The notes beneath the pieces were generated by a model. The model made no database searches. It was not told the DNA's origin and saw only the letters and a program-made list of their open reading frames with translations. Below, piece after piece: positions 16,057-63,549 of a DNA stretch of 64,000 nucleotides (position 1 is the first letter of the stretch; each line of letters opens with the position of its first letter). The position numbers and the translations under genes are program-made. Source of the stretch: Carpediemonas membranifera BICM (Eukaryota; Protista; Fornicata); assembly GCA_019828565.1 (NCBI GenBank), contig JAHDYR010000011.1, positions 71,072 through 135,071 on the forward strand, in the 5' to 3' direction.

Positions 16057-17175
16057 CTATTCCACCTTGAAGCTGTTGTAAACCTTTGCCAGTTCCCGTA
16101 GTCCTGCCGTGAGGCCTTCCCAAATGTCTATTTCTGTCCATGGGGTTCGCTGGAGTTCGCTCCACACTCCGTTCCCGAACACTTTGTCCCTTGCCTTTGC
16201 TCCCCTGTTGTTCACTGGGTCGCCCATGCATGCTCTTATAGTCTCTTCCCATTGGTCCGAGCTCTTGATCCTGTTCAGCTTTGAGACTGTGACTGGCCCC
16301 TCCTTCTTTTCATGGGCCAGGTGTGCACCTCGGGTATGGCCAGAGCCACGTCTCGCTCACTTCTGCCATAGTACCGTTGTTCCTTCCATGCTAGTGTGAT
16401 TCCATTGTGTGCTGAGCCCCATACCCCGACCTTCTGAGACTCTACCACCTCAATCTCCGCCCCCTGGATTCCTGGTGTTGTCACTGCAAAGTCCGGGGTT
16501 GATGTTCCTGATGTGAGCGTCCCAGACTTGGGTATGATGGCTTTGAGCCTGTGCTTCTCCATCATATCCTTCCACCGGGTGGATCTTTCCATCTGGCCTG
16601 GGTCGATGTTCCAGTCTCCCATAATTATGGCCTCCATGCTCCCTTTCATGTCCATGATCTTCTGTATAGTGTCCCTGAATCCATCCTTCTCCTGCTTGCT
16701 GTGGCCGGATGGAGGGCCATACACGTTGATGACTAGTATGTCCCTGCCGGTTCTCATTATGCTGGCTTGCACTCTTCCCGATAGGCTGTCCGTTATGCCG
16801 ATGTCCCACTTTGCAGTTGCGTGTGGGCTCACTCTCGTGCCGATGCCTTCCCTTGTTCCCTTCCATCTTGGCGCAGGTTCGTCATTGCCTGCTATGCCTA
16901 GTTGTCGGTTGATGCGGTGCTGACTTTTTGACATCCGCCTTTCGTTTTTCGTTGGCTAAGACCAGGTCCTCTTCCGTCTCCCTCCCTGCTAGTGCGTAGT
17001 CAAGGTCCATGAAGCAATGAACCCTCGTATTCGCCGTTCTCCATGTCTCTTGTATGAGTACTGCCTCTATGTCCTTCAACCTTAGCTGAATCGCCGTTGC
17101 CATAGACGCCGTGAAGTCCTTTCCTCTTCCTATGTGTCCCTCTGTGTTCAGACTAAGTATCTTGTAGGTTACCAT
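16057..17175 (-). CDS. AP-endonuclease (APE)-only ORF2, frameshifted
   Basis: ILSLN, LIQET, INVYGP, MGDWN, TPDFAV, SAHNGI. Ends SFKVE-stop at 16057. Confidence 0.85.
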
Positions 17176-17506: not shown

Positions 17507-20500
17507 TTACTCCTCCTCCGTGGACTCCCCACTGCCGCTGCAGCTGTCCTCGGCCTGACTCACTTGCTGTCCTTGTAGACTCTGCATTACCGTGATGAAC
17601 TGGGTCATCAGGTCCATGGGTGAGATCTGCTTGGCCTTCTTAGCCTTCTTGTGCTTGTGCCGGGGGATCGTGGGCTTCTCCTTGCTGGGCTTAGTCGCGA
17701 CGCCGGAGAGCACCAACCTTCCGTGGCCTTGCTCTTGCATGAGTCGGGCAGCCTTGAGCGCTGAGATCTCTTGTTGCGCCTCTGCCAACTGCTTTCGGAG
17801 CCGCAGCTTCTCCGAGTCCATGCCGGTTGCCTGTCTGCTTCCAGACTCCCAGTCCATGTCCTCTTCGTGCCTGCTTCTCTTTCCGCTGTCCGAGTCCATG
17901 ATCCTACTCGTGCTGCCCTCCTTGCGCTTGAGCGTCGTGGAGGAAGAGTGATCCTTGCTGTTGTCCATGCCTCCCTCTGAGCCTCTACCGGCCCAGGTGT
18001 TCCCGCTGAACGAGCCTCTCATCTGCGTTTCCGTGTTGTCCTGTCTCTCCCTGTCGTCTCCTCCGTGGTTACGATCCGAGGTCCTGTTCATGTTACCAGC
18101 TCTGTCGCCGGTTCTGTCGTCAGCTCTGACACCAGCTCTACCGCCGGCTCCGTGTCCTACCCTTCTGTCCTCTTCCCTGTCTCCATGCTGGTCGTGATGT
18201 CCTTGATCCGCGTCCTGGCCGAAGTGCCTGCCCACCATCCTGGTGCTAATCCGCCTCGCCTTTTCCTCCAGGCCGTTGTCGAAGAACCTACTTTGGTATG
18301 GCTGTTCGGACTTTCCGTCGATGGTGGGGACATACGTGATGCCTGGGACATTGACTGTGTTGGCTCTGGGCTCGTCCGGGATAGCTGCCGAGACTAGTCT
18401 GGCCCCTTCCTTGCGCATGCGGCTTAGGATGGTCCCAGCCTCGCTGACCCTGACCATGCCCCAGTCTCTCGGGATGAAGCTCGCCCCTAGGGTGATCCTA
18501 CCCCCTGTTCCTGGGGGCCTTGACGTTGACTATGACCTTCTCATAGTCCCTGAGGCTCTCTGCTAGGTCGTCGCAGCCCCAGACTCCTTGATGAGCCGTA
18601 GCCTCCTTCGAGGGCCACCACTCGTATAGCATGGCCATGGTTATGATGTCCTCCTCCCTTGCTGCCCCTAGGCCCTTCCTGACGCGTACCATGCGGAGCT
18701 GGTTAGCCGTGGCTCTTTCCATGATGGTCCATAGCGGGCTTCTCTCCAGTACACCTTCGTTGTCCATGATTGTGAGGGGGGGCCAGTAAGATGCCCTTCA
18801 TGCCCAACAGAACCTCCCCGAACCCGAAGCCGATGCCGAAGCGGTGTCCGTTGTCCGGGACTACGAGGATCCTGTCGCCGACTTCCCTGCTGACGTCCCT
18901 TGCGTCCCCCGATCGGGTACGTGCCGAAGATCTCAAAGGTGTCCCTCCTTGTCGCGAATTCCGGGCCTCCCATGATATCCATGCCCGGCTCCGCCTTCCC
19001 GACTGCTTCCATGGTCTTGTCGAGTGCCTTACCCATGTAGTGGTAGACGTCTGGGGTGCTCATCCTCTCCTTGCATAGGGCCCCTGATCCTGGCTGTGAA
19101 GACTACTGTATCCGCCAACCCACAGTGGTAGCAACCCGCGGTGTGTCTGTGGTACGGACAGACTCCCTTGGGCTCGCTCCTGTTCTGCCATCCATTTGAC
19201 CATGTTGTTACTGCTTCCAGGTAGTTGGCCTTGTCGAGGTTGTCCCTGAGGTTTTGGCCAGCCTCCTCCTTGCCGTTGTTCTCCAGGATCTCTGGTAGCT
19301 TCTTCTCGTCCACCAGCCTAGCTTGGAAGAATTCCCTGGTTCCTTGCTCCAGTCCATTTGTGGGGTTCGTGAGGAGGAAGCTTTCCATCTCCACCCCCTT
19401 TGCATACATGATTATCTTCCAACCCTCCGACCTTTCGATCCTTGCCAGCTGAGCCGCCAGGCGGTTGGCCCAGTCCCTGAAAGTATGTATGTGCTTCTCA
19501 TACTCGATCGGCGGCCGCCCCGTCCCGACCTCCACGAAGGTGGCCGGCGGCAGCCCCGTCACTGCCCATGCCGTGTACCTCGCTTGGTCCATGCTTGCTG
19601 CCGGTATGTCCTGGTAATACAGGCCATGCCCGTGTCCAAGAATGTCCCCAGTGCTGAGGTCAAAGAGTACGATCCCGCCCTCAACCGGGATGGCAGGGAT
19701 CCCTGCCTTCTTGACGCCAGGGTCTGCGCACTCGAAGTCGATGGCTCCGATCACCAGTCGTTTCTCCTTGTCCTTTCTAGGCATCCTCGGCGGCTGGCTG
19801 CTGACCTTGTTTGAGTCGACCTCCTCGTCCTGGTCGATCTTGCCTTGGTTGGCCCCCGACCATGTCCTTGTTCACTTCCAGGAGGCTGTCGTCGAGGCTT
19901 CTTCTGCCGGGCATGGTGGCCTGCTGGCGTCGTTCCTCCTTGTCCTTGACATGTTGCTCCTCGTCTCCGTCGATGACCGTGCTAGCGGACGACCTGTCCA
20001 GATCGGCATGTTCGTCCCTATTGCTGCGGACCGAGGTGGCCTTGAGCACTTCCAGCCTCACCTTCCGGAACGGCGGCTCGTTGCTAAGGGGGTCTCCTCC
20101 CCTTCGCCCAGGATATTGGTTCTGCCCTTCAGGTAGATCCCTGACTTGTTCCATGCTGCCTGCCATATGGCCGGGGCCTCCGGTGCCTGAAGCCTGAGGA
20201 TGTCCCTAGCCTCCTCCATGAAGCGGCTGATGGACCATGCTGACGTGTCGCTTAGCTCTAGGATGACCCTGTACTTGCCGTCCTCTTGCTCGTAGGCCAC
20301 TCTGGTGACCGGGCCTTGGTTTGCCGGATCCCATACCTTGTCGTAAGGCACGCCTTCTACGGCCTCGTCTCCATGAGCCCCTGATACCAGTATGAACGAC
20401 CCTTCGGCCTTCTTGACGCTGTCCCTGTCTACATCCCATTCGATGGGCCCATCTTCCTTCGGCTTGAGGATCGCCGTCTCGATGTCCTTCTCAGATGGCC

Positions 20501-21014
20501 ATCTTGCCATGCCAGTGAAGCCCGCTTTCAGCGTCTTGGGCTCCAGTGCCTGTGCCATGTCCTTTGCTTCCTCGTCTCTGGGGTTGAGCGCCTCTGTGAG
20601 CATGTAGAAAAGGTCGCGGAGGCCGTGGATGCCGCATGGGTTCCTGAGGATGATGTCCTTGTTGTCAGTGACGCCGGTTGCGAAGAGGATGCGTCTGGCG
20701 TTCATGATTACTTCCTTGCGTCCTTTGGAGTTCGCATTGAGCGACTTTCCTGTAAACTTGCCTGTTCTACGAAGAAGTAGAGTCCTTGAATCGTTCCTTT
20801 CAGCGAGGAAGCTGTCCAGTAGTTCCCTGATGTCCTCCCACTGCTTCTGCGTGGAATCCCTGATCCTTGTCGGTATTTCTACCTGCATTGTTGAGTGCAA
20901 AATTTCTCCCCTTTTCCTAGTCCATAAACTGGGTCGGAATTTTTGGGTCCGAAAGTCGGGCCACATGTACATATCCGGGTGAGGTCTCCGTCCAGGCCTT
21001 CCAGTTTCTCCCAT
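17507..21014 (-). CDS. ORF1 polyprotein (read as several frameshifted pieces) with central DEDDh/MAEL-like domain and C-terminal coiled coil
   Basis: Overlapping same-strand ORFs 20058..21014, 19777..20166, 19029..19784, 18668..19063, 18498..18767 and 17507..18457. Treating them as one ORF is inference. Confidence 0.65.
19029..19784 (-). CDS. Maelstrom/arenavirus-NP-like DEDDh 3'-5' exonuclease domain with ECHC zinc site
   Basis: Motifs IDFE, PVE, AKGVEME, LVDE, CPYH, HCGLAD. A homologue lies at 59848..61028. Confidence 0.75.
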   Translation of the reverse strand: MPRKDKEKRLVIGAIDFECADPGVKKAGIPAIPVEGGIVLFDLSTGDILGHGHGLYYQDIPAASMDQARYTAWAVTGLPPATFVEVGTGRPPIEYEKHIHTFRDWANRLAAQLARIERSEGWKIIMYAKGVEMESFLLTNPTNGLEQGTREFFQARLVDEKKLPEILENNGKEEAGQNLRDNLDKANYLEAVTTWSNGWQNRSEPKGVCPYHRHTAGCYHCGLADTVVFTARIRGPMQGEDEHPRRLPLHG

Positions 21015-28340: not shown

Positions 28341-28368
28341 CATCTTCACCATCTCCCTCGAGGGTGAC

Positions 28369-34300: not shown

Positions 34301-36600
34301 AGCGTCGATCTGACTTGGTCATTAGTGGACCACATGCCGCTGCGGTCCTCTCTGGGGACATGTTCAACGAATGTGCGGCGGATCCCATCAATCGTGGCAA
34401 GGTCTAGCCACCCCCCAGGCGCAACCTGCTGATGAGCGGCAACCAGAGCGTCAGGTCCTGTGTATACGAATGTACGTGGTTCAGGGCCTTGGCTTGCCTG
34501 CGGCGGCGGGCGAAGGGGAGGGTTGGCTGAGTCACCACGGGCATCGTGCCCGGTCTCTGACTCAGCTCTCTCCCCTTCCCCGCCTTCGACGCCCGCCAGG
34601 GAGAGGAACTCGGACACTGCGGTGTCGTCGATGTTCCTCTCCTCTGGCTGGGTGGGGGCAACCTGGGCGGGGGTCTGGCGCGTGGGCCTGTCACCCTGCG
34701 GGGCGGCTGTGGGCTGCGGCCCAGTTGGGGCAGCAGCGGAGTCGGTGGGGGCAACCTGGGCGGGGGTCTGGCGCGTGGGCCTGTCACCCTGCGGGGCGGC
34801 TGCGGGCTGCGGCCCAGTTAGGGCGGCAGCGGAGTCGGTGGGGGCAGCCTGGGCAGGGGTGGGGTCGGTAGACCGGTCATCCCGCTGGGCGGCTGCGGGC
34901 TGCGGCCCAGTTAGGGCGGCAGCGGAGTCGGTGGGGGCAGCCTGGGCAGGGGTGGGGCTCGGGGGCCTGTCATCCCGCTGGGCGGCTGCGAGCTGCGGCC
35001 CAGTTAGGGCGGCAGCGGAGACGGTGGGGGCAGCATCGGCAGGGGTCTGGCGCGTGGGCCTGTCACCCTGCGGGGCGGCTGCGGGCTGCGGCCCAGTTGG
35101 GGCAGCAGCGGAGTCGGTGGGGGCAACCTGGGCGGGGGTCTGGCGCGTGGGCCTGTCACCCTGCGGGGCGGCTGCGGGCTGCGGCCCAGTTAGGGCGGCA
35201 GCGGAGTCGGTGGGGGCAGCCTGGGCAGGGGTGGGGTCGGTAGACCGGTCATCCCGCTGGGCGGCTGCGGGCTGCGGCCCAGTTAGGGCGGCAGCGGAGT
35301 CGGTGGGGGCAGCCTGGGCGGGGGTCTGGCGCGTGGGCCTGTCATCCCGCTGGGCGGCTGCGAGCTGCGGCCCAGTTAGGGCGGCAGCGGAGACGGTGGG
35401 GGCAGCCTGGGCAGGGGTGGGGCTCGGGGGCCTGTCATCCCGCTGGGCGGCTGCGAGCTGCGGCCCAGTTAGGGCGGCAGCGGAGACGGTGGGGGCAGCA
35501 TCGGCAGGGGTCTGGCGCGTGGGCCTGTCACCCTGCGGGGCGGCTGCGGGCTGCGGCCCAGTTGGGGCAGCAGCGGAGTCGGTGGGGGCAACCTGGGCGG
35601 GGGTCTGGCGCGTGGGCCTGTCACCCTGCGGGGCGGCTGCGGGCTGCGGCCCAGTTAGGGCGGCAGCGGAGTCGGTGGGGGCAGCCTGGGCAGGGGTGGG
35701 GTCGGTAGACCGGTCATCCCGCTGGGCGGCTGCGGGCTGCGGCCCAGTTAGGGCGGCAGCGGAGTCGGTGGGGGCAGCCTGGGCAGGGGTGGGGTCGGTA
35801 GACCGGTCATCCCGCTGGGCGGCTGCGGGCTGCGGCCCAGTTGGGGCGGCAGCGGAGTCGGTGAGGGCAGCATCGGCAGGGGTGGGGCTCGGGGGTCGGT
35901 CTCCCTGGCGTCGGGCGAAGGCCTCGGCCCTCGCGTACTCGCGGGCGACGCCCGCATTCGGTGGGCTGGCTGGGCGGGGCACATGCTGGACCCGCTTCAC
36001 CAAGGCGGTTACAGACGTCGTCCTCTGAGGGCCTCGGACAGTCTGAAGGAGGTTCATCCTTCTCGCTTTCACTGGGTCGATGGCGTGCTCGATCATACGC
36101 TCAAGAGCCTCGTTCGCACGTTCGATGGTGAGCGTTGATGTGAACGCCTGATCAGTGGCTGCAGCGTGCAGAATGGCGACAGCATTTGCGACGTGATCGT
36201 CGCGGCGGGAAGCTTTCACCTTGTGGCCGGGGCCGAAGCGATTTGTCGCCGCGTGAACGTAGTTGGTTATCCAAACCAAGTTGCTCACCGTGAAGAAACG
36301 CTTGTAATCCGAAATAAGGCTCAATAGACGTTCTTTGTTCATGCAGATCTCAATAAAGGCCTCAGTATCCTTCGGCCAAGAGTTCTTCGAGCTGGAGGGA
36401 TGGAAATCGTTAATCCACCGCAGAAGAGCAGCGAACAGCGCTAATCGCTTGTCAATAGACGTACCAGGTCCTTCATCGGATGTTAGGCAGGATTCGTCGC
36501 CTTGCGGCGGCGAATCGAGCAACTTTCCTCTGGATACCATGGCCGAATTTACTTTCCCAGGTTGTCCGAACGACACGCGACTCCGCGGAATTTCGAGCAA
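31354..36600 (-). mobile_element. CRE-like unit 5, full length (frameshifted)
   Basis: ORFs 33946..36600, 32205..34112 (RPIAMGECLRR, GVQQGDPISP, YQDD) and 31313..32122 (CPLC, RHD, RADL). Confidence 0.92.
34650..35905 (-). repeat. 93-bp (31-aa) coding tandem repeat, 13 copies
   Basis: Thirteen TGPQ units in ORF 33946..36600. Confidence 0.9.
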
Positions 36601-36738
36601 CTACTCTCGCGCAGGGGCAGGGGATGCGTTATGCGATGCGGCGATGGGGCGGGAGGCGCAGGGGGGCTCGGGGACGACGCAGCCTAGAGTGGCCGAGTCA
36701 GCCGAGTCGCGACTCCGGCATTTTGGGGGGAGGGCAGA

Positions 36739-37368
36739 TTATTGGTGGTGCTCGGCCCAACGGGCCTTGCACTGGGAGACATAGTCCGACCAGACGGTCT
36801 GGTTGTCCGCCCAGATGGACCAGAATACCCGGTCACGGATGGCGCCCACGAGGGCCGGCCTGCGAATCGCGGCACAGAGGCGGGCGACCCAGCACTCGGT
36901 CAGACGGGACTCAGTCTCGCCCAGAACCGTGCAGGCAGCAGGCACGAAGGTGACCTGCCAGTTGCGGTACTCGCGGAGCTTCTCTAGCTCAGCCTCCCGC
37001 GGGTGCAGGCTGACCACGAAGTCGACATAGACTTCCTCGTGGACACGGTTCCCGACCACGTCTCTCTCGCCTGCCACCATGAGGTCGGCCACCTTGCGTC
37101 TGGGCGCTTCGGTATCGGCCTGCTGGTAGCGGGGGTGACGAGAGGTGAGCGCGACCTCGGCCTGGCAACGGGCCATGGGTCGACCTCTAACGTCGTCGTC
37201 GGTCAACACGGCGCTCACAGCGTCTCTAACATGGTTGTGACGCTCGGTGTGGGCGGTTCCCTTGGTGTGTGGGCACGAGAGGGCATGCTGCCAGGTGCAG
37301 CGCTGGGCCTGACACAGGGGGCAAGTCTCGGGCCACTCTTCGAACGGGGCGACATCCAGGTGTGCCCT
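36739..37368 (-). mobile_element. CRE-like unit 6, 3' RLE end (interrupted by the 12-kb DNA transposon)
   Basis: Matches unit 2 at ~6190..6818. Continues at 49498. Confidence 0.9.
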
Positions 37369-37416
37369 CATACTGTTAGAATGGCCAGTTAATCCGGGGA
37401 TATACGGAGGATAAAC
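37369..37416 (+). repeat. Left TIR, 48 bp
   Basis: catactgttagaatggccagttaatccggggatatacggaggataaac. Confidence 0.97.
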
Positions 37417-50048: not shown

Positions 50049-53000
50049 CTATAGTCGCTTTTCCAGCTTTGAGCGCTCGTCGGGCGGTAGCGTCAACAAG
50101 TAACTGTCTAATGCGACGAGCTGGCGGTTCTCTGCATCTAGAGGTTCCCACGTAGCCTCTGAGCGTTCGAATCCTGCCCAGAGAATCTTGATCAGGCCTG
50201 GTTCCTTCCTCAGGTCGTGATCCAGGATGGCTTCGACGACAAGTTCGTCGTGATCCAGGGCCGCCATTTTGAGGGCCGCCTCTGGGCTGACGGGCGCTGC
50301 GATCATGCGCTCCCCGTGGATGTGGACCACCTTCTTCGTAATGAGGTCCTTCAGTCGGTAGACGTTGGGGTCTTCGCCACGACCCAGGACCTTAAGTGGT
50401 CCCCGGAGGAAGGGTGAGAGCTTCTGGGGCTTCCTGCTCGGGATGATAAACGCAAACTCGTGCGGCTTCCACCTGTGGGTGGTCTTGAAGTGATCTCCCC
50501 GGCGCTTAGCCGCGTTGTACTCCTCCACAGCATGCTTGCTCAGTGCGCGGATGCGGCCGAGGGCCTCGATGTGACTGGCGAGAGCTGTAGATGCGCGCTC
50601 GGGGTCGGTGTAGCTGCGTGGGGTCTTCAAGTGTCGAGGGCTGATGCCCAGTAAGGCCTCGAGGGGTGATATTCCCCCCAGAGTGCGATGTGGAGCGGAG
50701 TTGACGAGGAATTGGGCCATATAAAGCCATCGTTGCCATTTGTTGGACTCTGCTTCCATCATGAGTTTGCGTAGAGCGCGCACGGCCGTGCCATTCGCTC
50801 GCTCAACTATACCCGAGCTCTGTGGATGGTAGGCTGTAGCAATGTGGTGCTTGAGGGTCAATTCACTCGTAAGCTTCTCCATAAGCTTGTTGCGGTACTG
50901 GGATCCTCCATCGGTGTGGATCTCCTGAGGAATGCCGAAGCGGCCAGCGAATGCGAGTAGGGCCTGTGCGGCTGAGTCTGCCGACGTGTCCCGGACTGGA
51001 ACTAGGTCGACGTACTTGGTAAAGGAGTCAATGATGGTGATGATATATCGATTGCCCCGAGTGGATTCGGGCAGGGGCCCGATCGTGTCCAGCTGGACTG
51101 TCTCGAACGGCTCTACCCTCTGCGTGCTATGCCACGCGGTCTGGCGCGCTTGGATCTGTCGAGTCTTCAGACATGCCGGACAGGTCCGAACGAAGGCGTC
51201 GATGTAGGGGTCAATGGTCTCGCGTTGAGCTGGCGTTGCCAGCCTGCGGATGATTCTGGCTGATGGGTGGCCGGCGGATCCTCCATGAAGGGTCCGGAGG
51301 ATGGCGCGGGCGTCTTCTGGTATGTCGTCAGTGGTCAGGAAGCAGCAGCGACTAAGAGCGTCTGCTACAGCGTTGTCCTCCCCTGCCACATGTGATATCT
51401 CCGCGGGGAACTGCTGGAGGGTGATCCTCCAGCGCATTACCTTCGGTGAGCAGTCCGAGCGCTTCATGAGGTAGACGATATTGCGATGGTCCGTGTGGAC
51501 GTGTAGGTCCGTGGCCATGGTGAACAGGGGCTGCATGTCTGATCTGGTGAGTGCACTAAGGATACCATACAGTTCCTTATCATAGGTGCACCAGCGGCGT
51601 TGCACATCAGTTAGTCTCTTGGAGAATAACGTGACGGGCTGATGTTGGCCGTCCGCAGCGATCTGGTATAGAATACCGCCGACCGCGTTGTCGGACGCGT
51701 CTGTATAGAGATGCCAGGGTAGACCCGGGTCCGGCTGGGTGAGGGTGATGGCCTCCGCTGTGGCCTCCTTGAGGCTCTGGAGGGCCTGTTCTTGTGGATC
51801 ACCCCACTCCTCGGCCTTGATTGCGTCATAGAGCGGGCCAAGAAGCTCCTGTGCGCGCGGAAGGTGCTCAGCGATGTAATTGAACATGCCAGCGATGCGT
51901 CGCATGTCCTTGACAGAGGTGGGAGATGTGATGTCGTTGAGGGCCTTGGCTCTCTCGGGGTCCACGCTGCGACCTTGCTCCGAGATGTCGAAGCCGACGA
52001 CCTTGACCTTACGGGAGGCGAACTTGCACTTCGCGAGGTTAAGTCTCAAGTCATGGCGATCGAGTAGCACTAAGGTGTGCTCTAGCGTCTGGAGGAATTC
52101 CTCCTGTGTCTTTGCGTGGATGAGGATGTCATCAATGTAGACCATAACACCCTTGTGAAGCACGGGTGCGAGGACTCCTTGCATGACTCTTTGGAAGTGA
52201 GACGGCGCATTTGCTAGGCCGAATGGCACCCGCACGAACTCGTCATACGCGTCTGGGGTGATCATAGCCGTCTTGCGGACGTCGTCCGGGTGGACTGGGA
52301 CTTGATGATACCCGGACGTGAGGTCCAGCGCCGCGAAGAAGCGTGAGCCGGATGCTTCCCGTACAAACGACTTCAAGTCGGGGAGGGGGAAGTGGTCCTT
52401 GACTGTGATCCTATTGAGAGCTGTATAGTCAATACACAGTCTGATGGCGCCGGATGCCTTGTCTACGACGACAATGGGAGAGGCAAACGGTCCCTGTGAG
52501 GCCCGTGTGATACCTGCCGATCGCAGGCGCTGCAGCTCTTCTCTGACTTGCTCACGGCGTCTGGGATTGAGGCGGCGGGGCTTGGCTTGCACGAGGTGCT
52601 GTTCGTCCACTAGCGGGATGCGCATGGCGGGCACCTTGGCTCCTCCGGGCGCCAGGCCGTCAAAAACGTGAGGGTGCTGCACCAATATCGCTGTGATCGG
52701 TTGCTTAAGCTCCTCGATCTCAATGTTGGGCTGTACGTCGTCGGCCAGCAGTAATTCTTCTGCTGGTCTGAAAGGAATATCGTCCCCTTCGTCTGCTGCG
52801 GTTTCTTTCACGAGCTTAACAAAAAGGCCATCGGAAGTGAGGCATCCGAGGCTTCTCAGAATATCGCAGCCTATGAGGATCAGGGGGGTTTTCCCTGGTA
52901 TGATGTCGAGGTTGGCAGTGAAGCGGGTCTCGTGGCCAGCTAGGGCCACTCGGAGGTCCGCGGAGGTCCGGCCATTAGCGGTGGCCACTGACTGGTCTGC

Positions 53001-53105
53001 CAGTAAATAATGCCGCGTAGGGCCCGTTGAATGGGGTAGGGCGAGATCCTTTGCTAGTCCCTCCGAAACTCCTGAACGTCTGGCGCATGAATCAATGTGG
53101 AACAC
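50049..53105 (-). CDS. pol: Gypsy Pol polyprotein
   Basis: IDSCA (protease), RLCIDY, YIDD, TDAS, H-H-C-C integrase zinc finger, QLD..HTDGG..VER, and VEAILDH..WAGF..ATWEP (chromodomain). Confidence 0.96.
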   Translation of the reverse strand: MFHIDSCARRSGVSEGLAKDLALPHSTGPTRHYLLADQSVATANGRTSADLRVALAGHETRFTANLDIIPGKTPLILIGCDILRSLGCLTSDGLFVKLVKETAADEGDDIPFRPAEELLLADDVQPNIEIEELKQPITAILVQHPHVFDGLAPGGAKVPAMRIPLVDEQHLVQAKPRRLNPRRREQVREELQRLRSAGITRASQGPFASPIVVVDKASGAIRLCIDYTALNRITVKDHFPLPDLKSFVREASGSRFFAALDLTSGYHQVPVHPDDVRKTAMITPDAYDEFVRVPFGLANAPSHFQRVMQGVLAPVLHKGVMVYIDDILIHAKTQEEFLQTLEHTLVLLDRHDLRLNLAKCKFASRKVKVVGFDISEQGRSVDPERAKALNDITSPTSVKDMRRIAGMFNYIAEHLPRAQELLGPLYDAIKAEEWGDPQEQALQSLKEATAEAITLTQPDPGLPWHLYTDASDNAVGGILYQIAADGQHQPVTLFSKRLTDVQRRWCTYDKELYGILSALTRSDMQPLFTMATDLHVHTDHRNIVYLMKRSDCSPKVMRWRITLQQFPAEISHVAGEDNAVADALSRCCFLTTDDIPEDARAILRTLHGGSAGHPSARIIRRLATPAQRETIDPYIDAFVRTCPACLKTRQIQARQTAWHSTQRVEPFETVQLDTIGPLPESTRGNRYIITIIDSFTKYVDLVPVRDTSADSAAQALLAFAGRFGIPQEIHTDGGSQYRNKLMEKLTSELTLKHHIATAYHPQSSGIVERANGTAVRALRKLMMEAESNKWQRWLYMAQFLVNSAPHRTLGGISPLEALLGISPRHLKTPRSYTDPERASTALASHIEALGRIRALSKHAVEEYNAAKRRGDHFKTTHRWKPHEFAFIIPSRKPQKLSPFLRGPLKVLGRGEDPNVYRLKDLITKKVVHIHGERMIAAPVSPEAALKMAALDHDELVVEAILDHDLRKEPGLIKILWAGFERSEATWEPLDAENRQLVALDSYLLTLPPDERSKLEKRL

Positions 53106-54273
53106 GTACTCTTGGCAAAGAAAGAAAGAATTTAATGTGTCCTGCTACTCGTCCTGCTGTGTAAGCTGAATGTCACAGTTTGTGTCACCCCTTCGAGGAA
53201 CGCCTAAGCGTGTTGGTACCTCTACAGAGCACACCTAACACTTCCTAAGAGGGCGTGAACAACGGCCGTCAAGGCCTAGCTGGTACGCTAGAGGGATCCT
53301 ATACATGGCCACATTAATACCCCCAAAGTTAGGCTAACCCAGGTCTTACTCTTAGGGGCCCTTTGGGTCCCAGGTCTGCCTGGCACCTACAAAGCCTTGC
53401 CCTGCACGCTGCTGTCAGGGACCTTCCGTACGTTTCCCCTCTCCCCCGGGTCCCCTAGGGAGGTCCTGGAGTTTCCTCGACCCGCTCGCCATGTTTCAGG
53501 CACCCGCCAGGGCGGGGTCGGGTCTAGAGTTCGCCGTACCAGCTGGGCCGGGTTAGGAACCCACCGACGCCGCGTAGGTAGACTTCCACGGACTTGCCGG
53601 CTGCGTTCGGGCTCATCTAGCGCTGTCCGATTTCACTCCAGGTTCCCATTATCGGGGGGGAGCTCCCAGGGGCGGTTGCCACGTCTTCCAGTGTTCCTGG
53701 CTAGGCGCCGGGCCACATCAGGATGGCCCTGCCTTCCCGGCAGGTTACCGACGGAGTGGGTAGCTTCTTGCGTCATCCAGTACCTCCGCCAGTCTGCCAT
53801 GCATCATCCTCCTGGTGCGCCCCCACTGTGTGGGGAGGGGGTACCCCCTTGCGCGCCGGAGGGATGCGCCGGACTGCTTGTCCGGACGCTTGCGCCCTAC
53901 TGGCCCAGCTGTTTTGCCAGGCCTTCCCTATTTCGTGCTTGTTGTATGCGGTTGTCCCTTAGTGGTCCTTTGCAGCCTTCCCTCCGCCTGGCGCTACCGG
54001 AACATGTGGTGTTGTCCTCATTGGTTCCAGGCCCGCTGCGCTTGGGGTCGGTGCTCGGGCCACCTTTCCAGGCCGCCCTGTGGGTTGGGCCTGTCCCCTC
54101 TTGGTGGTGGGGGAGTTGTTTCAAGTGTGATGCAGGCATCAGAGTGCTCCCTTGCTGCGTGGGTTGGGTTGGGTGTGCGGCCGGGCGCTACCGGAACATG
54201 TGGGGGGAAAACACCTCCCGCCGGTTCCAGGAATGTTCCGCCCTGTGCCTTGTCTTCACCCAGGGCTTTCCTC

Positions 54274-57200
54274 CTAAGGGTCTGGGCCTGTTCTGAGGTT
54301 CATGAGGGCCTTTTTCCCGCATAATAGACCCTCCTTCACTGTTTCATCCTCCTGTTGCAGTAGCCAGTGGAGCTCCAATATGGCCCTGGAGTTATACCAC
54401 TCCCCATCTGGGCCGTGCCGCAGCCTACTTGCCATGGTGTGTGTTGCCGCAGCTTCCCAGCACTGCTCCCACCCACTTGGGCGGCCGACGCCCTGGCACT
54501 CCGCTATGATGTGGCTTTGTGTTCCTAGCGGTTGGTCTTCCAGCCACCCGGCTACTGCAACTAGCGCCTGCGCCTGGGGGGGGTATAGTTGGAGGTAGTT
54601 GATCAATTCGCGTTCGGCTGCGAGTGTGCATATCGGGCATATTCTTTTGGATACGGTCGCAGAGCATTTCCTGCCCAGGGTACCTCCTGCTTATGATGAG
54701 CGCGGCTCCTCGAGTTGTGTGGCTGTTGCTAGCGGAGGGGAGCGTGTTGGAGGCTGTTGCAACTACCCTCTTCAGCTCCCTCCTGAGCATCATCTCCCCT
54801 CTGATAATCTTTTGGTTTCTTGGGTGCTCTCCCGCCTGCCATTGTTTGCATTGCCTCCGCAGCTAGCACTTCGGCGGCCGCCTTGGCTGTTCGGCTACCT
54901 TTGGTGGCGATGTCTCGTGCTGTCATCTTCCATCCCCCGGCTATTGCTCTGGGTCTGGGTCCGTGAAGGTCGCTAGGGGCCAGATCTAGTACGTTGTCTG
55001 CCCACTTGTTCAGCTTTCCGATAACGGACTTGGGGTTCGCTCTTCCCCAGTCGAAGTCCGCTAGGGGCGATGGGCGGTCAGGGTCCCGGGCCGATTCGCG
55101 GATTCTAACCGCTCTTACACCCATGTCCGCTTCCCAGCACATCCATCCCATCATCAGGCGGGCGACACCCCCTCCACCGGGTCCGGTTCCCGCCATGAGT
55201 CCTCGCCAGTCGTTCCAAAGCCTTCTGCCTCCTGGGACTTGGCCCCAGATTTCGATTCCGAATTCGATCTTTGGCCATAGGAAGGTGCGGAGGATGGACT
55301 CGGAGACAGCCGCGGGCGTGGAGCCTTTAGTCCATCCCACTCTCCGGGCGAGGGCGATGTACTTGTTCGACTGTTCTCTTTTCTTTGCGATGCATGCGCT
55401 GAGCGGATGAGGGCCACTTGCTATCCAGAGTCCCAAGTATCGGCCTGACTCCGCTGCTCGGGTGGCCTCCCCTTGAATTCGCACTTCCGCATTTGGATTG
55501 GTACTTATGACGATGTTCTTTCCTGGGCTGATACACAGCTTGTGTGCCACTATCACTTCCACCATTGCGGCGGTGAGGGACTCCGCATCATTTTTCTTTC
55601 TTTGCCGAGATGCTCGTATCGTCTACGAACATTGCTATGATGCCATTCCCGGGTCTGTGGTGGGTGGGGGAAGCTTCGGGTCTGGTATCTCGCCGTACTG
55701 TATTCTGAGTGACGCCTGGCTAATCCAGTTGGCCGTAAATAGTATGAATAGGGTGGGGGCGACCACGCAACCTTGCTTGACTCCTAGGTTCGTTTCGGAC
55801 CATAGGTCGGATCCCCTTACCGCAATGTAGGTCCTCTCCATTGTGCTTTGTACTGCTCTGACTAGGTGGGGGTGTACACCCATATTGATCAGCTTGCTGA
55901 CTAGGATGTCCCTGGGAACCGTGTCGTACGCCTTTGCAATGTCGAGCAGCACGCTGGTCCGGTCTCCTTCTTGGTGCAGTTGGGTTAGGAGGGCGATGTG
56001 GTCTATGACTGTCTTTCCCTTCATGAAGCCGATCTGCTCTCTGGGGGTGTGCCTCTCAACTGTTGGTTTGAGCCTCCATTTGAGTACCTTCCCATATGCT
56101 CGGTAGAGGAGGGGGGGTGAGTGAGATGGGTCGGTAGGATCCTGGCAGTAGCTTATCTTTCCCTACTTTGTGTATCGGGGAGATGGAGGCGTACTTCCAC
56201 GTGGTGGGTAGTTCCCCAGACTCGTATACTTTCTGGAAGAGGCATGTGATTGCCCTGTAGGCCGCCTGGGGGAGGTCTCTCAGACATTCGCCCGTGATAC
56301 CATCCGGGCCTCCTGCCGATGATTTCTTCAGGGACTTGATGGCGGCCGTGACCTCCTCCTCCGTGGGGGGTTGATCAGTTGTTTGGGCCGCCGGGATCTG
56401 GTCCCAACTAGGTGCTATGCCACTACTGACTTGGGCGTATTGCCTCTGCAGCTCCCTAGCTATCTCGTTTTCCCTTGTTAAGATCGACCTCTTTCCTCTG
56501 AGCATCGCCGGTAGCCCTGCGTGTTGTTTCTCGTTCCAGAACCTGTGGACCTGGTTTGCTATGACCTTCTTGGTGGTCTTATACCCTGCCCTTGCGCTGT
56601 TTTCCACCTGCTGCGTCCACTCCTCCTTGAAGCTTTTCCATGACTTCTGGAGCTCGTTGTTCAGGGTCCGCTTGATTTCCGCGGCCCCCGCTTTGTTCCA
56701 TCGGGCTAGGATGAGTTGCTTCCATACGTTCTCCGGGATCCTTTTTGCGATCTCCCTGGTCTGACGTTCCTAGCGGAAGTTTGAAATCCCACCGATAAGA
56801 GTTCCCGTATTTGGTACTCGATTGTATCTACATGGAGCTCCACATCGGGTTGCGGCCATTCCCTTGCCCTTTCCCCGTTGCGCTCTGGGAGGACATTCCA
56901 GGTGGTTGTTCCTGGGATTTCCAGCTTGGGTTTGGCCGGTTGTTTCTTCCAATGCGGTTCGTCCCAGGTTAGCTCCACTGCCCTATGGGGGGAGCCCCAA
57001 TGCCCCATCTCAGCTTTGTCAATGACTCTAGCTTTGGCCCTCGTGATCCCCCCAGATACAGCTGCATAATCCAGCGTCGAGGTGGTATTCCCACTCATGT
57101 ATGTGTGAGACGAGGGGAAAACTAGGTCTAGATTGTTTCGCTGTAGTGTGGCGCTGGTGGCATGGCGCAGGCTCCGCGGGTCACGGTTCCAGTCCCCCAT

Positions 57201-57648
57201 GATGATTATCTCGAAGCCGTGGTACTCTCTGACGATGTTTTCCAGCTGTTGGTCGAAGCGGTCTAGCTCCCGCTGCGCTGCGGTCACTTGGAGGGGCGTA
57301 TATGTTGATGACTGCGATAGCCCTTGAGGTTTCGAGGATGCTAACTTGAACTCGGGGGTTCGTGCCGTCAGATACTCCTACATCCCAGGTTGCCTGTGAA
57401 TGTGGGCTGATCACCGTGGCTACGCCTAGGTTAATCTTGCCCTTTCGAGCCTTGATGGGTTTGGCGTGCCCTGCACATGCGTATTGTAGGTCCGCCCAAC
57501 AGGGGACTACGGAGTTACCGTACCTGAATGTTTCCTGCAAGAGGAGGGCGTCCGGGCTCGTGTGCTTGCGAAGCGCTACCGCTATAGATCCGCTGTAGTC
57601 TTCATTGCCCGTTAAGTGTCCTTGGCTGTTAAGGGAGACTATTCGCAT
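54274..57648 (-). CDS. LINE ORF2: AP-endonuclease + reverse transcriptase (frameshifted in this sequence)
   Basis: IVSLN, LQET, NIYAP, GDWN, TLDY, SPHRAV; GPDGI, YRPISL, LDIAKAYDTV, GVKQGCVVAPTLF, MFVDD, RYLGL. Confidence 0.92.
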
Positions 57649-58375
57649 TCAGGTTGTTACTGCCTTAACCTGCACTCCTTATTCTGCACTACCTGCACAC
57701 TTTCATCTTGTTGTTGGGGTTTAGCATCTGCATAGTTGCCTTCCCAATGGGTGAGCGCCTATGTCGTCGTTGTTTAGCACGTTGGGTGGGCCGCTTCCCG
57801 CCCTGTGGGTTGTTGGTGGGCGGCCCGGGTAGGCGTCTTCTTTGCCCTTGATATTTCTCCAGGACCCAGAAGCATGCGCCATTCACATGGGGTGCTTGGC
57901 CAGAACGGCTGCTTCCTCCAGAGTCCCCAGACGTGGCCCAGGTTCCCTCTTGGAGCTGACCTAGGGTGTACCACCCCTTTCACTGGCCGCGCCCTCGCGG
58001 TGCTTGTCGGGACTTTCGTGCCAGTCTCTATAGCGCTTCTGGCCTCGCACATTGGCAGCATCGTTACCTAACTACGCATAGGTGGGAGCGACTCCTTTCG
58101 GCGCCCCTCCCAAGGCTGGAGTTCCAGCCTGCCGGACAGGCGGGTCCTCGATGGCGTTCCAACTGCCTCTTACCCGCCCCCCGGTCCCTGCGGGGAACAG
58201 GGGTTTTAAGAAAAGAAAAGTCACCCGGGCATTGGCGCCAGTACAGCCCTTCTGGCGGGCTCCAACGCTGCACCTATTCCGGCGCCTTCACTTCACCTAG
58301 TCCTACACTAACGTGCTATATATACACATCCCTTTAGACTCTGCACTCTTCCCTCCACTGCTTTGGTATGGCTCG

Positions 58376-61300
58376 TTACTCATGCATCTCTTGATCTGGT
58401 TCGTCGCTCTCGTGCTCCATTCCGATGCGTAGGAGCTCTTCTTCCTCGTCGCTTCCGTTGGCGGCGGCAAGCGCCTCCTCAAGCCTGGCCTCGAGGACTC
58501 TGTTTGTTTCACGGAGCCTGAGGCTGGCTCTTTTGAAGGCCTCCGATTTCTCGGCGATGCGCTGGAGGCGCTGGCGCTCGCTCGCTCCTCTTGCTAGGGC
58601 TTCCCTTTCCTTGGCCAGCTGGCCTTGGAGGTGGGTAACCTCGTTGTTCAGCCGGGGAGACTTCCTCTTCGTAATGGCTCATGATCCGCTGCCGCTCTTC
58701 TTCAGCTCTTCGCTCCACCTCCGCTTGGAAGAGGGCTTGGATGTAGGCACCCATCTGATCGACCGTGCCCAGTCTTGGGTTTGGGGGCCTCTTCCCTTCG
58801 GGGCCGCCCGGCGGGGGCCGGTGCTCGAAAGCCTGGCTCAGAGGCATCGCCGGGGGGGTTGGCCTCTTTGTGAGGCGTGAGGATCGCCTGTCCCGGGGCC
58901 GGGTGGGGGGGGTTCATTCCTCTGGGAGTGGGGTAAGCAGGGCTTACCTGGTGCGCATTAGGGGTGATGATTGCCCTTGGGGTGGGGTGGGCGGGGGTTA
59001 CCTGGCGCGGGTTGGGGGTGGGGTTTGTTTCCCCTTGGAGCCTGCTGGGGGAGGGGGTGGCGTTCACCTTCCTTTGAGATGGGTTCGGGGTGGGGACCTG
59101 TCGGTTCTCGGTGAGCGGGCCCTCAAGCAGCCCTAGGGCCGGCCACTCCATGCCTTGGTGAATCTCGTTGGTGAGCCTCTCCCGGTGCTCTTCGAGGCAG
59201 GCTCTAAGCGCGGCCCTTGCCGCGGTCACAGCCTCTTTTTGCTCTCGCTGCGACCTGTGCCCGTCGTTGTTCTGGGTGTACGGGAAGTCCCACAGGCGGA
59301 TGGGGGGTAGTCTCATCATGGGACTGCATCCCAGGGCCAGGGTGCCGTCGTATTGGGGGTTCGCCCAAGGCGCTCGGGCGGCGTCTTCCAGGCTCCCCTC
59401 CTTGTTCTACTGTGCGGATGCCCCAGTCTAGGGGAAGAACCGAGGGGAAGAAGTTGACATAATGCCTGGGCCCTCTATCTTGGCGCCGGAGTTCCGCGCT
59501 TACGATGAGTTTCGGGACGCCCGCTGGTGCTCTATCGCCGATGTTCACCAGGCAGTGGGTGAGCCGGTGTCTCAGCTGCTGGGCTGAGCCCCCATGCATC
59601 ATGTCATGCTTATGGAGCGGGACCAGCGAGGCTGCCTGGGATAGGGTCAGGAGCTCGGGGTGGAGTTTGACCGGGAGTTGCTCCATGACCCTGGGGGTCC
59701 AGGGTGGTACGGTTGCCATAGAAGTCTGGCCAGTAGCCCTTCTCCCTTGCTACGCGGCGCCTACCGTTCCACTCGGATAGGAGCTCCACGACCAGGGGTC
59801 TCGTGCTTGGGCAGGAGTCCGGGCTGAGAACGGCTACGCCCCTCCTTTCAAGGACCCTTAGGATTCCTTTTCCTGTGCTGAACTCTTGCGCGGTCGTGTT
59901 GGCCATGTGGATTTCCTTCGGACGCGGCTTGGTGGTAAAGATCACGTGCTGTAGTTGCCCCCAGGGGTGTGATGACCTCTCGCCCTCTATGGCGGTTGAT
60001 CTCTACAGCCAGGTCTGGGACCCCGTGTCCTACTCTAATGATGGGGCTTTGTGCCCCCGTCACTTTCCCTCCTCGTGCGATTAGTTCCGCTCCCACATCA
60101 GCCCAGGTCCACGGGTTATACAGCATGTGGATGGCCAGGGAGAGTCTTGTGTAGAAGAGCGATACATCCGCAAGCGCACAGTGACAGTAGGCTGGTGCGT
60201 TTCTGTGATAGGGGCACAGCCCCTTGGGTTCCCTTCTCCTTTGCTGGTCGCGGGTCCAGACCTTGGCCTGCTCGGCTGCCTTCTGGTCCTCCTGTGGGAG
60301 GGTCTCTCGGACCGGGCGGTCCTCCTGGGAGGGGGGGTAGAAGAGGGTGAGGGTGCTATTGAGACGGGGGTACACCGCATCTAGGCCGGCTTCATCGATT
60401 AGGTGGGTGGCTACCCATGCCCTGGCCGTGGAATCCGGTACGTATTTGGCGCTCGTGAGGACACTTCGTTCAGCTTCCACCCCTTTGGCAGTCAGGTGGA
60501 TGAACGCGTTATGGTGTCCTTCGAGACGCCGGAGGGCATCGATCATTTCCGCGCACCATGTGGTGCTGTTTGGGAATGTGCTTTCGAATCCCTGGGGGGC
60601 CTGCCCAGTGGTGATGTCGACGAAGGTGGCTGGGGGCAACCGTGGAGAATTCTTGAGCTCATCAGAGCCTGGTCGAGGTCGGCCACCCGAATATCTTCGC
60701 CTAACATCCCGTGCAGACTGGCGACGATATTCCCGTTGGCGGGGTCAAAGACTATGACCGCCCCTTCGCATATGACGGCCTCATCCCCCGCCTTGGATGC
60801 GGGTTTGGACGCTTCGAAGTCAATGCACCCGATCAGCATCCTCTTGCCCTGCGGGTTGGTGAGCGGGCAGGACGGGGGGAGTCTGCTGTTGGCTGACAGT
60901 TCTCTACCCCTTGGCGGGTTGACGTCACTATCACTGCCAGGGACTCTTCTGGCCGAGTCGTCGGCGTTGGGCCGGGGGCCATCTTGGGTACCCCCGGTCT
61001 CCGAGCCCGCACTTTCGCCGCTGGGCATGGTGGCGGGGTTCCCCCGCTAGTTGGGTTCCAACCTGCTTCGCCCCCCAATGAACGAGGGGGCGACTGGATC
61101 GCCCATGTTGGGTTGGCCAGTGGTCGGGTCGCCGCCGTTGTGCGGGGCAACGCCCAGGTTGCCCCTGGTGGGTGGGTCCGTCCTTGGGCCGCCGTTGGGC
61201 GGGCTATCACCTGCACTTGCTCTGCCATTATTCGGTGGGGGGGTGACCGGGTTGCCCTCGTGGGGTGGGTTGTCGGTTTGCTCGTTGCCCTTGGGCGGGC

Positions 61301-62722
61301 CGTCCCCTGTGGATTCGGTGGCGAGCAGCTTGGTACCCTGGTCCGCCATCCAGATGTTTGCGATCCTGCTAACGAGGGTGGAAGCGTCGCAGAGGTCCGG
61401 GTGGATGAACTCAGGGGCCGGCATTGGCCGGGTAGTAGTATCCCATGCGGCCCACAGCTCTTTGAAGCCCGGAACCGTCCAGCGAAGCACTAAGTCTTCG
61501 GCCTCACTGCGCGCTAGCTCGTCGCCGGCAATGCTGAGGGCTGAATCCGTGGGTGTCCTGCTAACCAACACAGGTCTGGTCACCCCATCGGTCCTGCTGT
61601 AGACAGCTATCGCGGAGAACATGCCACCTTCCCAGGGCTTGACGGCCTGTCCGTCAAGGGGGGGGAAGCCTCCTGCTGGGGGTCTGGGGCTAAGGGGGAC
61701 GGGGGCATCCTCCCAGGCCCGACCTAGGGCCGCCCACTTGTTGTTGACGTTGTTGTGGGCTCTGTCCGCACCTGGCGCTTTCGCTGAGCCGGCTGTGGCT
61801 TGGCCGCCTGCCTTGAGGAGCCAGGCGGCGCTCTGCTGGCCGAACCTTGTCCTGATCCCAGGCCCTGTGAGGCTTTGGTGACCTGCGGCCTTGAGAGTGC
61901 TGGCAACTAGCTCGAACAGCAAGGATCTAGCCGGTGGCGGGCTTGATACCTTGAAGTTGGCGGCGTTATCCCTCGAGAAGATCACTGTGGTGTTGTTGCA
62001 CTTGGCGAGGATGGAATCGGCTGCTCTTCGGACTTTTTGCCACTCTTCGGTCGTAGCTAAGCGTTTTCCAAGCTTGGTGAGCTCTGTTCCAGCTTCGTCT
62101 ACATCATTCCCCCGGCCCATGGCTTGTTGGGGGAACTTTGTGTTTGTGGCCGAAATTGGTCTCGAAAAGTCGGAGGGGGAAAGTCGGCATGAATCCCCCG
62201 GGGGGGAGCCCTCCCTGCCCGCCTCGCCTGTAGGCGCCGTTGCCGGCGCTCGTAGGCTGGGAAACCCGGGGTCAGGGAGTAATCGGCCTTGGAGGTGAAC
62301 ATCACGAAGGCCGGCCCGCATCGGGGCAGTGGCCGGCGCTGTTGGTCCTCGCGGTGGATTTTCCAGGCCGCCTGGCTTACCCACCATGGCCTTCCGGTTA
62401 TCAGGGCGTAGTGGTATAGCAGGATGTCATTTTCTAGCATTTGGGTAGCCGTTATTTCCCTTTCTCGGCTGGGATTCTGCCACCACTGTAGCTGGTGATC
62501 CACTCCTGGGGGGAAGGGATCCTTTATCTTGCTATACCCTTTTAGGTCGCCGTACATCCGGATCAAGTCGGCGATTTTCTCGGTTCTCGTGCGCTCCTTG
62601 CGTAGAGGAGGCCCTATGGGATGCTCGGGGAGGAGATCTTCTGCTCGGGCAACGTACCCGCCCTGTGGGTTCCTGGGAAACGCGTCCATTGCCGGCCGGT
62701 GGCTCGGATGAGGAGTGTGCAT
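58376..62722 (-). CDS. LINE ORF1 polyprotein (frameshifted pieces) with central MAEL-like nuclease and C-terminal coiled coil
   Basis: Chain of overlapping minus-strand ORFs with the same layout as 17507..21014. Confidence 0.6.
59848..61028 (-). CDS. Maelstrom/arenavirus-NP-like DEDDh exonuclease domain
   Basis: IDFE, ICE, PPATFV, AKGVEAE, LIDE, EPKGLCPYHR, HCALAD across ORFs 60543..61028 and 59848..60639. Confidence 0.78.
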
Positions 62723-62757
62723 TTTAGTGCTCCATCACCTGATCACACCATAGCCTT

Positions 62758-63549
62758 GTGGCGTTGCACGTTGGCCTTTCCGAGCAGGGGCGGGGAGGTG
62801 TGGCCTATTGCCTGAGATGCGGGGTCGGTTGCGAACCTTGTAGCCATAATATGAGTTCACCACATTTGGTTCCTGTTACACCCATTAGCCCGCCTGGCGA
62901 CTACCACCAAGGCCCAGGCATTGCCGCGGCGGAGCCCCAGACCCCTAGAGAGGGCTGGGGGTCGGATTCTTCCACCACATCGTCCTCTGTGGAGGAGCTG
63001 CCCCCCGGGTCATTGGCATTGCCTTCCTCCCGCAGCGCCCGCGCCTCTGCTCCCAACCTGGTGGGATGGGGCCTCAGGAGTCCTCAACGCCGACTCTTCC
63101 GCTCCTTCCAGGGGAAGGCCGTCCCCCGCCGCCTCCAGCTGGCCCGGTCCCCTGCTTCCCCCGGTCCTCACAACGGCGAGGGCGCTGCCCCGTTTGTCAC
63201 GCCATTGGCTTCCTCCCCAGCTGGGGCTCGCACCGTTCGTCAGCCTGTGGCTCCACTTGCGTCAGCCCTCGACGCTCTCAGCACTTTGGATCGCATCGCC
63301 ATGGACTGGCACTCGTGTGCCTATGCCTTCGTGGACATGCTCCATGAGGGGACCGACGAGGATCAGCCTGTCGAGAACCTACAGGCCATTTTGGCATTCC
63401 AGCGCACTTCTCAGTCCCAGATGGTTATGTATCGCAGCAGCAGGGGCGCTCTTGAGCGGGCCCTTAGGCAGTATGTCCCTTCGGTTTCCCATTTCCTTGC
63501 CGACGGAAGCCCCTCAGTGGAGTTCCTGGGCGCCGGGACTCCTCAGTAA
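62758..63549 (+). CDS. Hypothetical ORF divergent from LINE ORF1 (likely ATG 62851)
   Basis: 263-codon ORF with a helical-looking C-terminal third. No recognised motif. Confidence 0.35.
   Translation: MALHVGLSEQGRGGVAYCLRCGVGCEPCSHNMSSPHLVPVTPISPPGDYHQGPGIAAAEPQTPREGWGSDSSTTSSSVEELPPGSLALPSSRSARASAPNLVGWGLRSPQRRLFRSFQGKAVPRRLQLARSPASPGPHNGEGAAPFVTPLASSPAGARTVRQPVAPLASALDALSTLDRIAMDWHSCAYAFVDMLHEGTDEDQPVENLQAILAFQRTSQSQMVMYRSSRGALERALRQYVPSVSHFLADGSPSVEFLGAGTPQ

Follow-up and report, generated by a model that had tools for sequence, protein, structure and literature searches.

Exonucleases of the DEDD type have been described in host proteins, RNA viruses and mobile elements, and several of them act on RNA. 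The Maelstrom (MAEL) protein of Entamoeba is an RNase (PMC4408791), the nucleoprotein (NP) of Lassa virus degrades double-stranded RNA (dsRNA) in immune evasion (PMC7412275), and trypanosome RIF4, which has a preference for dsRNA, acts on small interfering RNAs (siRNAs) of retroposons (PMC3359990). Among mobile elements, DEDDy open reading frames (ORFs) occur in long terminal repeat (LTR) and Penelope-like elements of bdelloid rotifers, two families of which carry a Cys-His-Cys motif recalling Maelstrom (PMC5408684; PMC5718144); DEDD nucleases are also present in KolobokD DNA transposons (PMC9587614) and in RNA viruses (10.1101/2022.02.15.480533). A stretch of 64,000 nucleotides from Carpediemonas membranifera BICM (contig JAHDYR010000011.1, positions 71,072 to 135,071 of the forward strand; hereafter the window) contains a long interspersed nuclear element (LINE), here LINE-A, for which a preliminary description made from the sequence alone proposed an exoribonuclease of Maelstrom/NP type in ORF1 and a role against silencing. 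The best explanation of the locus as a whole, with a probability of roughly 0.4, is that a Maelstrom-type exoribonuclease lies in the middle of ORF1 and is likely directed against silencing RNA. The LINE lineage, whose ORF1 carries a Maelstrom-like exonuclease predicted to be active, is real, conserved and, as far as the searches reach, undescribed: literature searches, with subscription journals and Repbase reports outside their scope, returned no Maelstrom-type or other DEDD domain described in a LINE ORF1.

The five motifs singled out by the preliminary description were all located on the minus strand of the window at 60824-60166, upstream of LINE-A ORF2. IDFE and ICE share one frame; AKGVEAE, CPYH and HCALAD share another, and the suspected indel near 60640 corresponds to a frame break of one base where five C residues follow one another. 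The proposed ORF at 59848-61028 stands as a domain and falls as a free-standing frame; it occupies about 60130-60845, midway along an ORF1 of about 1,200 codons. The LINE context is borne out by an APE endonuclease, a reverse transcriptase (RT) and a zinc knuckle downstream on the same strand (Table 1); the top PDB matches of the RT are R2 and L1 ORF2, as befits a non-LTR-type RT following an APE, and ORF2 stops at 54274. ORF1 comprises an N-terminal domain, a Pro/Gly linker, the nuclease, a divergent post-nuclease region with PLDWG and a coiled coil, and outside the nuclease it resembles its relatives weakly, through short motifs only. The sense strand is A-rich along the whole of LINE-A. The match of the LINE-A domain exceeds chance. 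The pattern C-x2-H-x7-H-C-x3-D occurs twice among the 127,996 residues of the six-frame translation of the window, against 0.004 occurrences expected, both times within LINEs (LINE-A and a second element, LINE-B, at 19160), and a profile from which the window rows and the two sister copies had been excluded recovers both LINE-A nuclease pieces (E 1.9e-39 and 1.2e-15).

LINE-B is a divergent element whose nuclease domain is unbroken. This domain matches the two LINE-A pieces at E 1e-23 and 4e-19, and blastn finds no DNA similarity between the two elements; their clear protein-level matches are the nuclease and the APE. An RT belonging to LINE-B is absent from the window, where another retroelement family comes next. 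The LINE-B domain, not the broken LINE-A domain, was used throughout for structure prediction.

A homologue search of 1.84 billion representatives (E up to 0.001) gave 14 matches, one of which (P0017, a bacterial repeat protein) was dropped; seven of the remaining 13 are C. membranifera proteins and the other six lie on NCBI contigs of 3.7-10.8 kb. P0001 was added from a separate word-based search, and such searches, which by their type leave room for stand-alone host relatives, returned C. membranifera proteins only. No relatives were found among phages or in IMG/VR. The family comprises about 12 lineages with pairwise identities of 19-68%, and is old, yet narrow in range within the searches made. 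P0005 and LINE-B are 98% identical in the part that matches, and P0016, a sister copy of LINE-A, shares 89% identity with it across 534 aa, shifted stretches included. In a tree of 12 rows, from which two N-terminal-only rows were left out, six C. membranifera rows cluster at 87/87, below the starred level. Four proteins of 1129-1250 aa represent whole ORF1s, ordered as N-terminal domain, linker, nuclease, second conserved domain (terminating in IPR(E/D)WG or a variant), coiled coil and low-complexity tail. An APE lies 3' of the nuclease domain in all four loci for which DNA is available; in two of these, L001 and L002, it starts about 300-370 bases past ORF1 (E 3.7e-9 and 9.8e-13) before the contig ends. 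The RT is present in one of the four, the remaining three ending or being interrupted upstream of it. Pfam detects no RRM, zinc knuckle, PHD, esterase or HMG box in 12 family proteins. The N-terminal and post-nuclease domains of P0007 (residues 1-235 and 576-790; L001 1842-4210) show conservation between families, yet neither Pfam nor the PDB sequences contain a match to them. P0009 (KAG9395705.1), named 'Splicing factor U2AF' at source, is a fragment of this nuclease-bearing ORF1 family.

The catalytic and zinc-type residues recur throughout an alignment of 14 rows, some of them partial, that spans the same range of identities. The ExoI D-x-E on strand 1 is retained at D9 in 8/9 rows and at E11 in 9/9, the ExoII acidic residue is Glu instead of Asp (E127) in 12/12, and the ExoIII H-x4-D is retained at H213 in 11/12 and at D218 in 12/12; the exceptions are Tyr at the first Asp in P0006 and Leu at the His in P0012. 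The zinc-type Glu E28 is found in nine of ten rows (the tenth being the ragged start of P0018), while C202, H205 and C214 are each invariant in 12 rows, as is the zinc loop length of eight residues. Of the two further His of the MAEL signature EHHCHC, H46 (9/10 rows) may correspond to the first under a putative mapping of positions; a His precedes GxPP in only 3/10 rows. The nuclease is the best-conserved part of ORF1: mean pairwise identity among six long ORF1s is 36% for the nuclease, 21% for the N-terminal domain and 19% for the post-nuclease region. Between L001 and L002, a single pair with synonymous divergence (dS) near saturation, the nuclease has the lowest ratio of nonsynonymous divergence (dN) to dS among eight segments (dN 0.27, dS 1.05), with the N-terminal domain close behind (dN 0.28, dS 0.88).

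The one-base breaks can be compared with sister copies, from which the window differs by eight one-base frame differences. A run of at least four identical bases lies near all eight (in a context of 25-39 bases), compared with 34-47% of random windows, and the published C. membranifera assembly used nanopore reads (PMC8516963); long-read error and slippage both fit. Three alternative decodings were rejected. Reading TAG as Gln (code 6) fails because in P0016 two compensating one-base shifts bypass the apparent stop at 61047. Programmed frameshifting at GLPP fails because LINE-B and ten proteins (P0001, P0003-P0008, P0010, P0013 and P0018) cross the C-run in frame; L002 is likewise broken in this run. 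A separate third ORF 3' of the nuclease protein fails because P0018, P0020 and the four proteins of 1129-1250 aa span the junction.

The AlphaFold model of the LINE-B domain from 14 rows (pLDDT 82.6, pTM 0.81) has an RNase H-like core in which three strands are followed by alternating helices and strands, with E127 placed within helix 125-132, behind strand 115-121. Foldseek ranks Drosophila MAEL (4ybg) first (E 1.1e-4) and 3'hExo next (E 1.3e-4), and nearly all top structural matches are DnaQ-fold. In VIA comparisons, MAEL structures score Z 10.3, 9.8 and 9.8 over 166-172 residues (root mean square deviation, rmsd, 3.7-4.0), 3'hExo scores Z 10.8 over 164 aligned residues (rmsd 4.3), and Lassa and lymphocytic choriomeningitis virus (LCMV) NP score Z 7.5 over 137-138 residues at 17-18% identity. 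The closest folds thus include 3'-end trimmers (3'hExo/ERI1, RNase T and RNase AS), and TREX1-like enzymes tie also. The modelled fold is that of DnaQ/DEDDh enzymes, and the scores alone do not select a subfamily. Glu at ExoII has precedent in nidovirus ExoN, where the position is D/E (PMC7968707), and the domain is very probably a DEDDh fold with catalytic competence, as predicted from the model. A low-confidence model of 19035-19763 gave weak BFVD matches at ranks 18 and 22 (E 3e-3 and 5e-3), both to proteins of fungal dsRNA viruses.

It is the ligand set, not the fold score, that points to a subfamily. The zinc ligands of Bombyx MAEL are E137, C290, H293 and C302, its catalytic pocket contains R306, and E131 and H291 are residues of Drosophila MAEL (PMC4408791). 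The C-x2-H-x8-C-x3-D spacing of the LINE domain equals the C-x2-H-x8-C-x3 spacing of Bombyx MAEL; in the domain the ligand Glu is on strand 2, and C-x2-H-x8-C precedes the final helix. Counting without gaps from alignment end points places C202/H205/C214/D218 at Bombyx 290/293/302/306, E28/H205 at Drosophila E131/H291, and D9/E11/H213/D218 at the Lassa catalytic residues D389/E391/H528/D533 (PMC7412275). The basic arm of Lassa NP (K516-R519; PMC7968707) is not seen between the zinc ligands in any of 12 rows, and, as regards the N-terminal RNA-binding core of NP, a PDB search with a profile of the whole ORF1 retrieved no NP. The Maelstrom-like assignment is favoured over the NP-like one because the zinc-loop spacing is that of Maelstrom, the Lassa basic arm is lacking and the Z score of NP is lower; the domain is filed as Maelstrom-like and not as a Maelstrom member because no Pfam Maelstrom match was obtained. 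Motif spacing and fold thus place the domain closer to Maelstrom than to arenavirus NP, and they make it probable that the domain has a zinc site and descends from a common ancestor with Maelstrom. Most of what the preliminary description had claimed for the protein agrees with these results: its residue set (ExoI, ExoIII, Glu at ExoII and the four ECHC ligands) is conserved, its DnaQ/DEDDh fold is recovered by AlphaFold with Foldseek and VIA, and the two observations on which it had staked its case, a match to DnaQ, MAEL or NP structures and an APE beside the domain in other copies, were both made (an RT accompanying the APE at one locus). Of its Maelstrom/NP label, the first half is retained on spacing and fold, and the second fits less well in view of the Z score and the lacking basic arm; as for the origin of the fold, the data contribute one new branch and nothing beyond.

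RNA is the probable substrate of the domain, predicted by analogy because Entamoeba MAEL, Lassa NP and trypanosome RIF4 are RNases. LINE ORF1 proteins, which are abundant, coat element RNA. The ORF1 protein described here would oligomerize through its coiled coil and coat the RNA of its element, and many nuclease domains would thereby be placed at the sites where sense and antisense RNA pair and siRNA 3' ends are generated; the nuclease could then chew back duplexes and siRNAs ahead of Argonaute loading. Degradation of element-derived dsRNA or small silencing RNA by the domain, as envisaged in the preliminary description, is a tentative proposal.

Several observations weigh against a Maelstrom-type exoribonuclease directed at silencing RNA. 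As regards descent, the Pfam Maelstrom profile matches none of 14 rows and none of 12 proteins, and no arenavirus Pfam family matches either; PDB searches with a single sequence or a profile gave no relevant match, MAEL and NP included. In VIA comparisons, 3'hExo (10.8), RNase T (10.6-10.9) and the DNase-type Plex9.1 and DinG (10.6) tie with MAEL, and a first model built from six rows (pLDDT 60.7) had only generic DEDDh matches, with oligoribonuclease at rank 1 and arenavirus NP missing. The residue register is deduced from alignment end points, and the catalytic match would hold for any DEDDh enzyme. That RIF4 is a MAEL-type protein with an ECHC site is inferred here from PMC2628886 and PMC3359990. 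As regards function, literature searches gave no report of Dicer or Argonaute in Carpediemonas, and related diplomonads are described as having neither (PMC11437800). The three cases of anti-silencing encoded by transposable elements (TEs) counted in a 2019 review come from plants only and are narrow in action (PMC6719617). An exonuclease packed on the RNA of its own element would, moreover, need to spare that RNA.

The main rival is processing of RNA 3' ends or templates: the nuclease would serve transposition, trimming the 3' end of read-through transcripts for the RT or removing the RNA template or DNA flaps at integration. Past its ORF2, LINE-A shows neither a poly(A) nor a simple-repeat tail, Pfam matches no RNase H family in its ORF2 pieces, and the closest folds include the 3'-end trimmers 3'hExo/ERI1, RNase T and RNase AS. 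This role has also been proposed for the bdelloid DEDDy ORFs (PMC5408684) and degradation of DNA intermediates for KolobokD (PMC9587614), and none of these activities requires RNA interference (RNAi) in the host. Other LINEs, however, transpose without such a domain, and few enzyme copies would be needed, so that ORF2 would suit the task better than the abundant ORF1 protein. Furthermore, in the cases cited the ECHC branch is linked to small-RNA or immune conflict (PMC4408791; PMC7412275; PMC3359990), and a dedicated role in transposition is on balance unlikely, if less so than the other alternatives.

More doubtful still is a generic DEDDh exonuclease of phage, bacterial or ERI1-like origin that gained its zinc site independently of Maelstrom. 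The tied fold scores and the lack of a profile match to MAEL would be expected of such an enzyme, and Atlas feature matches are to nameless prokaryotic clusters and an Rv2179c-like cluster (0.93-0.94). Against this, the four ligands share the type, order and spacing of those of MAEL, including the Glu on the second strand; an ECHC finger is reported in MAEL and arenavirus ExoN, and no zinc finger in the phage proofreading ExoNs examined (PMC7968707); and the searches above found no phage or IMG/VR relative. Least probable, and ranked well below RNA processing, is a non-cutting RNA-binding or chaperone module standing in for an RRM or zinc knuckle, as in metazoan Maelstrom: it would suit the lack of both domains in the 12 family proteins, the inactive, single-stranded RNA-binding Bombyx MAEL (PMC4408791), the ExoII Glu and the substitutions in P0006 and P0012, but these substitutions aside, none of the five catalytic positions varies among rows down to 19% identity, inactive MAELs lose catalytic positions (PMC4408791) and Glu at ExoII is known from nidovirus ExoN (PMC7968707).

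A Maelstrom-type exoribonuclease in ORF1 provides a third setting for this domain, beside the host anti-transposon factor and the arenavirus immune suppressor, and its catalytically complete form, kept across about a dozen deep lineages, constitutes a new LINE ORF1 architecture. Few TE-encoded suppressors of silencing are known, and none of the three from plants in the 2019 review is a nuclease (PMC6719617). The small domain, with intact natural versions and clear point mutants, makes the destruction of silencing RNA by a LINE directly testable; if the processing alternative were true, a new step in LINE RNA processing would emerge. More speculative, and improbable on present evidence, is the view that LINEs weaponized a Maelstrom-type exoribonuclease from a host anti-transposon family as a silencing suppressor, fused to ORF1 as in arenavirus NP, and form a mobile reservoir of the domain between hosts, retroelements and RNA viruses.

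Table 1. Positions of the features of LINE-A and LINE-B in the window.
Feature	Position	Strand	Evidence or remark
LINE-B ORF2 start with APE	16060..17175	-	Pfam E 2.2e-7
LINE-B ORF1	17507..20888	-	Several frame breaks, outside nuclease
LINE-B nuclease domain, unbroken	19065..19763	-	Protein match to LINE-A pieces
LINE-A ORF2 C-terminal CCHC-type knuckle	54496..54639	-	CPIC...HIIAEC, read by eye
LINE-A ORF2 RT, frame breaks	55420..56162	-	RVT_1 E 8.7e-18; DIAKAYD, GVKQG, MFVDD (55632-55618), YLGL
LINE-A ORF2 APE endonuclease, two frames	56950..57648	-	Pfam Exo_endo_phos_2, E 9e-7
LINE-A ORF1-ORF2 spacer, ~730 bases	57649..58375	-	Pyrimidine tract and GC-rich hairpins
LINE-A ORF1 (limits approximate, start codon not certain)	58376..62120	-	Roughly 1,200 codons, several frame breaks
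Coiled-coil-like segment, ORF1 C-terminus	58379..58678	-	Simple heptad score; DUF2205 at E 0.023 misses the cut-off
LINE-A nuclease domain, C-terminal piece	60130..60639	-	LPPATF, then ExoII Glu in AKGVEAE (60489-60469)
LINE-A HCALAD	60183-60166	-	C-terminal piece
LINE-A CPYH	60216-60205	-	C-terminal piece
One-base frame break, five-C run on coding strand	60632..60641	-	Sister P0016 in frame here
LINE-A nuclease domain, N-terminal piece	60639..60845	-	ExoI D-x-E (IDFE 60824-60813), conserved HG
First zinc ligand Glu of LINE-A, ICE	60773-60765	-	N-terminal piece

Further features of the two LINEs and of their surroundings were recorded. A Pfam scan matched no family at the C-terminal CCHC-type knuckle of LINE-A. 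Its 5' end may lie beyond the window, and its 5' region contains an antisense ORF of 268 codons at 62743-63549 (+) and a sense ORF of 211 codons at 62099-62734 (-), neither of which matches Pfam or resembles the 5' regions of L001 or L002. Spacers between ORF1 and ORF2 were compared for L001 (5230-5600), L002 (4630-5000) and the window (17176-17506 and 57649-58375). They have a pyrimidine tract and GC-rich hairpins, with GGTAAAG shortly past the ORF1 stop in three of the four elements; in a fold common to the L001 and L002 spacers, both partners differ at 3 of the 41 pairs, and the window spacers fold only weakly (z about -1.7). The spacer is possibly a signal for ORF2 translation or splicing, and no Rfam family was found in the window. 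Directly past the 3' end of LINE-A, an intact Ty3/gypsy-type pol of 1031 codons (50049-53144, -) encodes protease, RT, RNase H, integrase and chromodomain (Pfam). At 21785-29674 (+) stand two tandem 3.96-kb copies, 99.9% identical, of an element that resembles DIRS and encodes RT, RNase H and tyrosine recombinase. Another element with a non-LTR-type RT, which has ORFs of up to 1173 codons, a 93-base tandem repeat within the ORF and a Pfam RT without an endonuclease, is present in at least four copies at about 1-15650 and 29900-37400 (-).

Compared with known systems, the LINE domain shares the DEDDh set, the ECHC ligands and the fold of the protist Maelstrom exoribonucleases, Entamoeba EHI_192630 and, by inference, trypanosome RIF4. 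It differs from them in lying inside a retrotransposon ORF1 instead of a host gene, in its ExoII Glu, in having no HMG box seen, and in being too divergent for Pfam or PDB profile matches. Arenavirus NP (Lassa, LCMV) likewise combines DEDDh and ECHC residues in a protein presumed to coat genome RNA, whereas the LINE domain has a short, eight-residue zinc loop, no basic arm, no viral context and a lower fold score to NP than to MAEL. The DEDDy ORFs of the bdelloid elements Juno, Vesta and Athena and the DEDDh nuclease of KolobokD are also 3'-5' exonucleases in mobile elements, the bdelloid enzymes having a DEED variant and, in Vesta2 and Vesta5, the Cys-His-Cys motif (PMC5408684). These, however, are encoded by ORFs of their own, in LTR, Penelope-like or DNA elements, and are RNase D-like DEDDy or TREX/ERI1-like enzymes; the LINE domain, in contrast, is a predicted DEDDh enzyme that has the complete ECHC set and is fused into the ORF1 protein of a LINE of APE type. 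The ORF1 esterase of CR1, L2 and RTEX elements offers the nearest parallel in layout, with an enzyme domain in the ORF1 position together with a coiled coil (PMC5408684), but the enzyme of the Carpediemonas elements is a predicted nuclease, in an ORF1 of about 1,200 aa in which no RRM, PHD or esterase was found.

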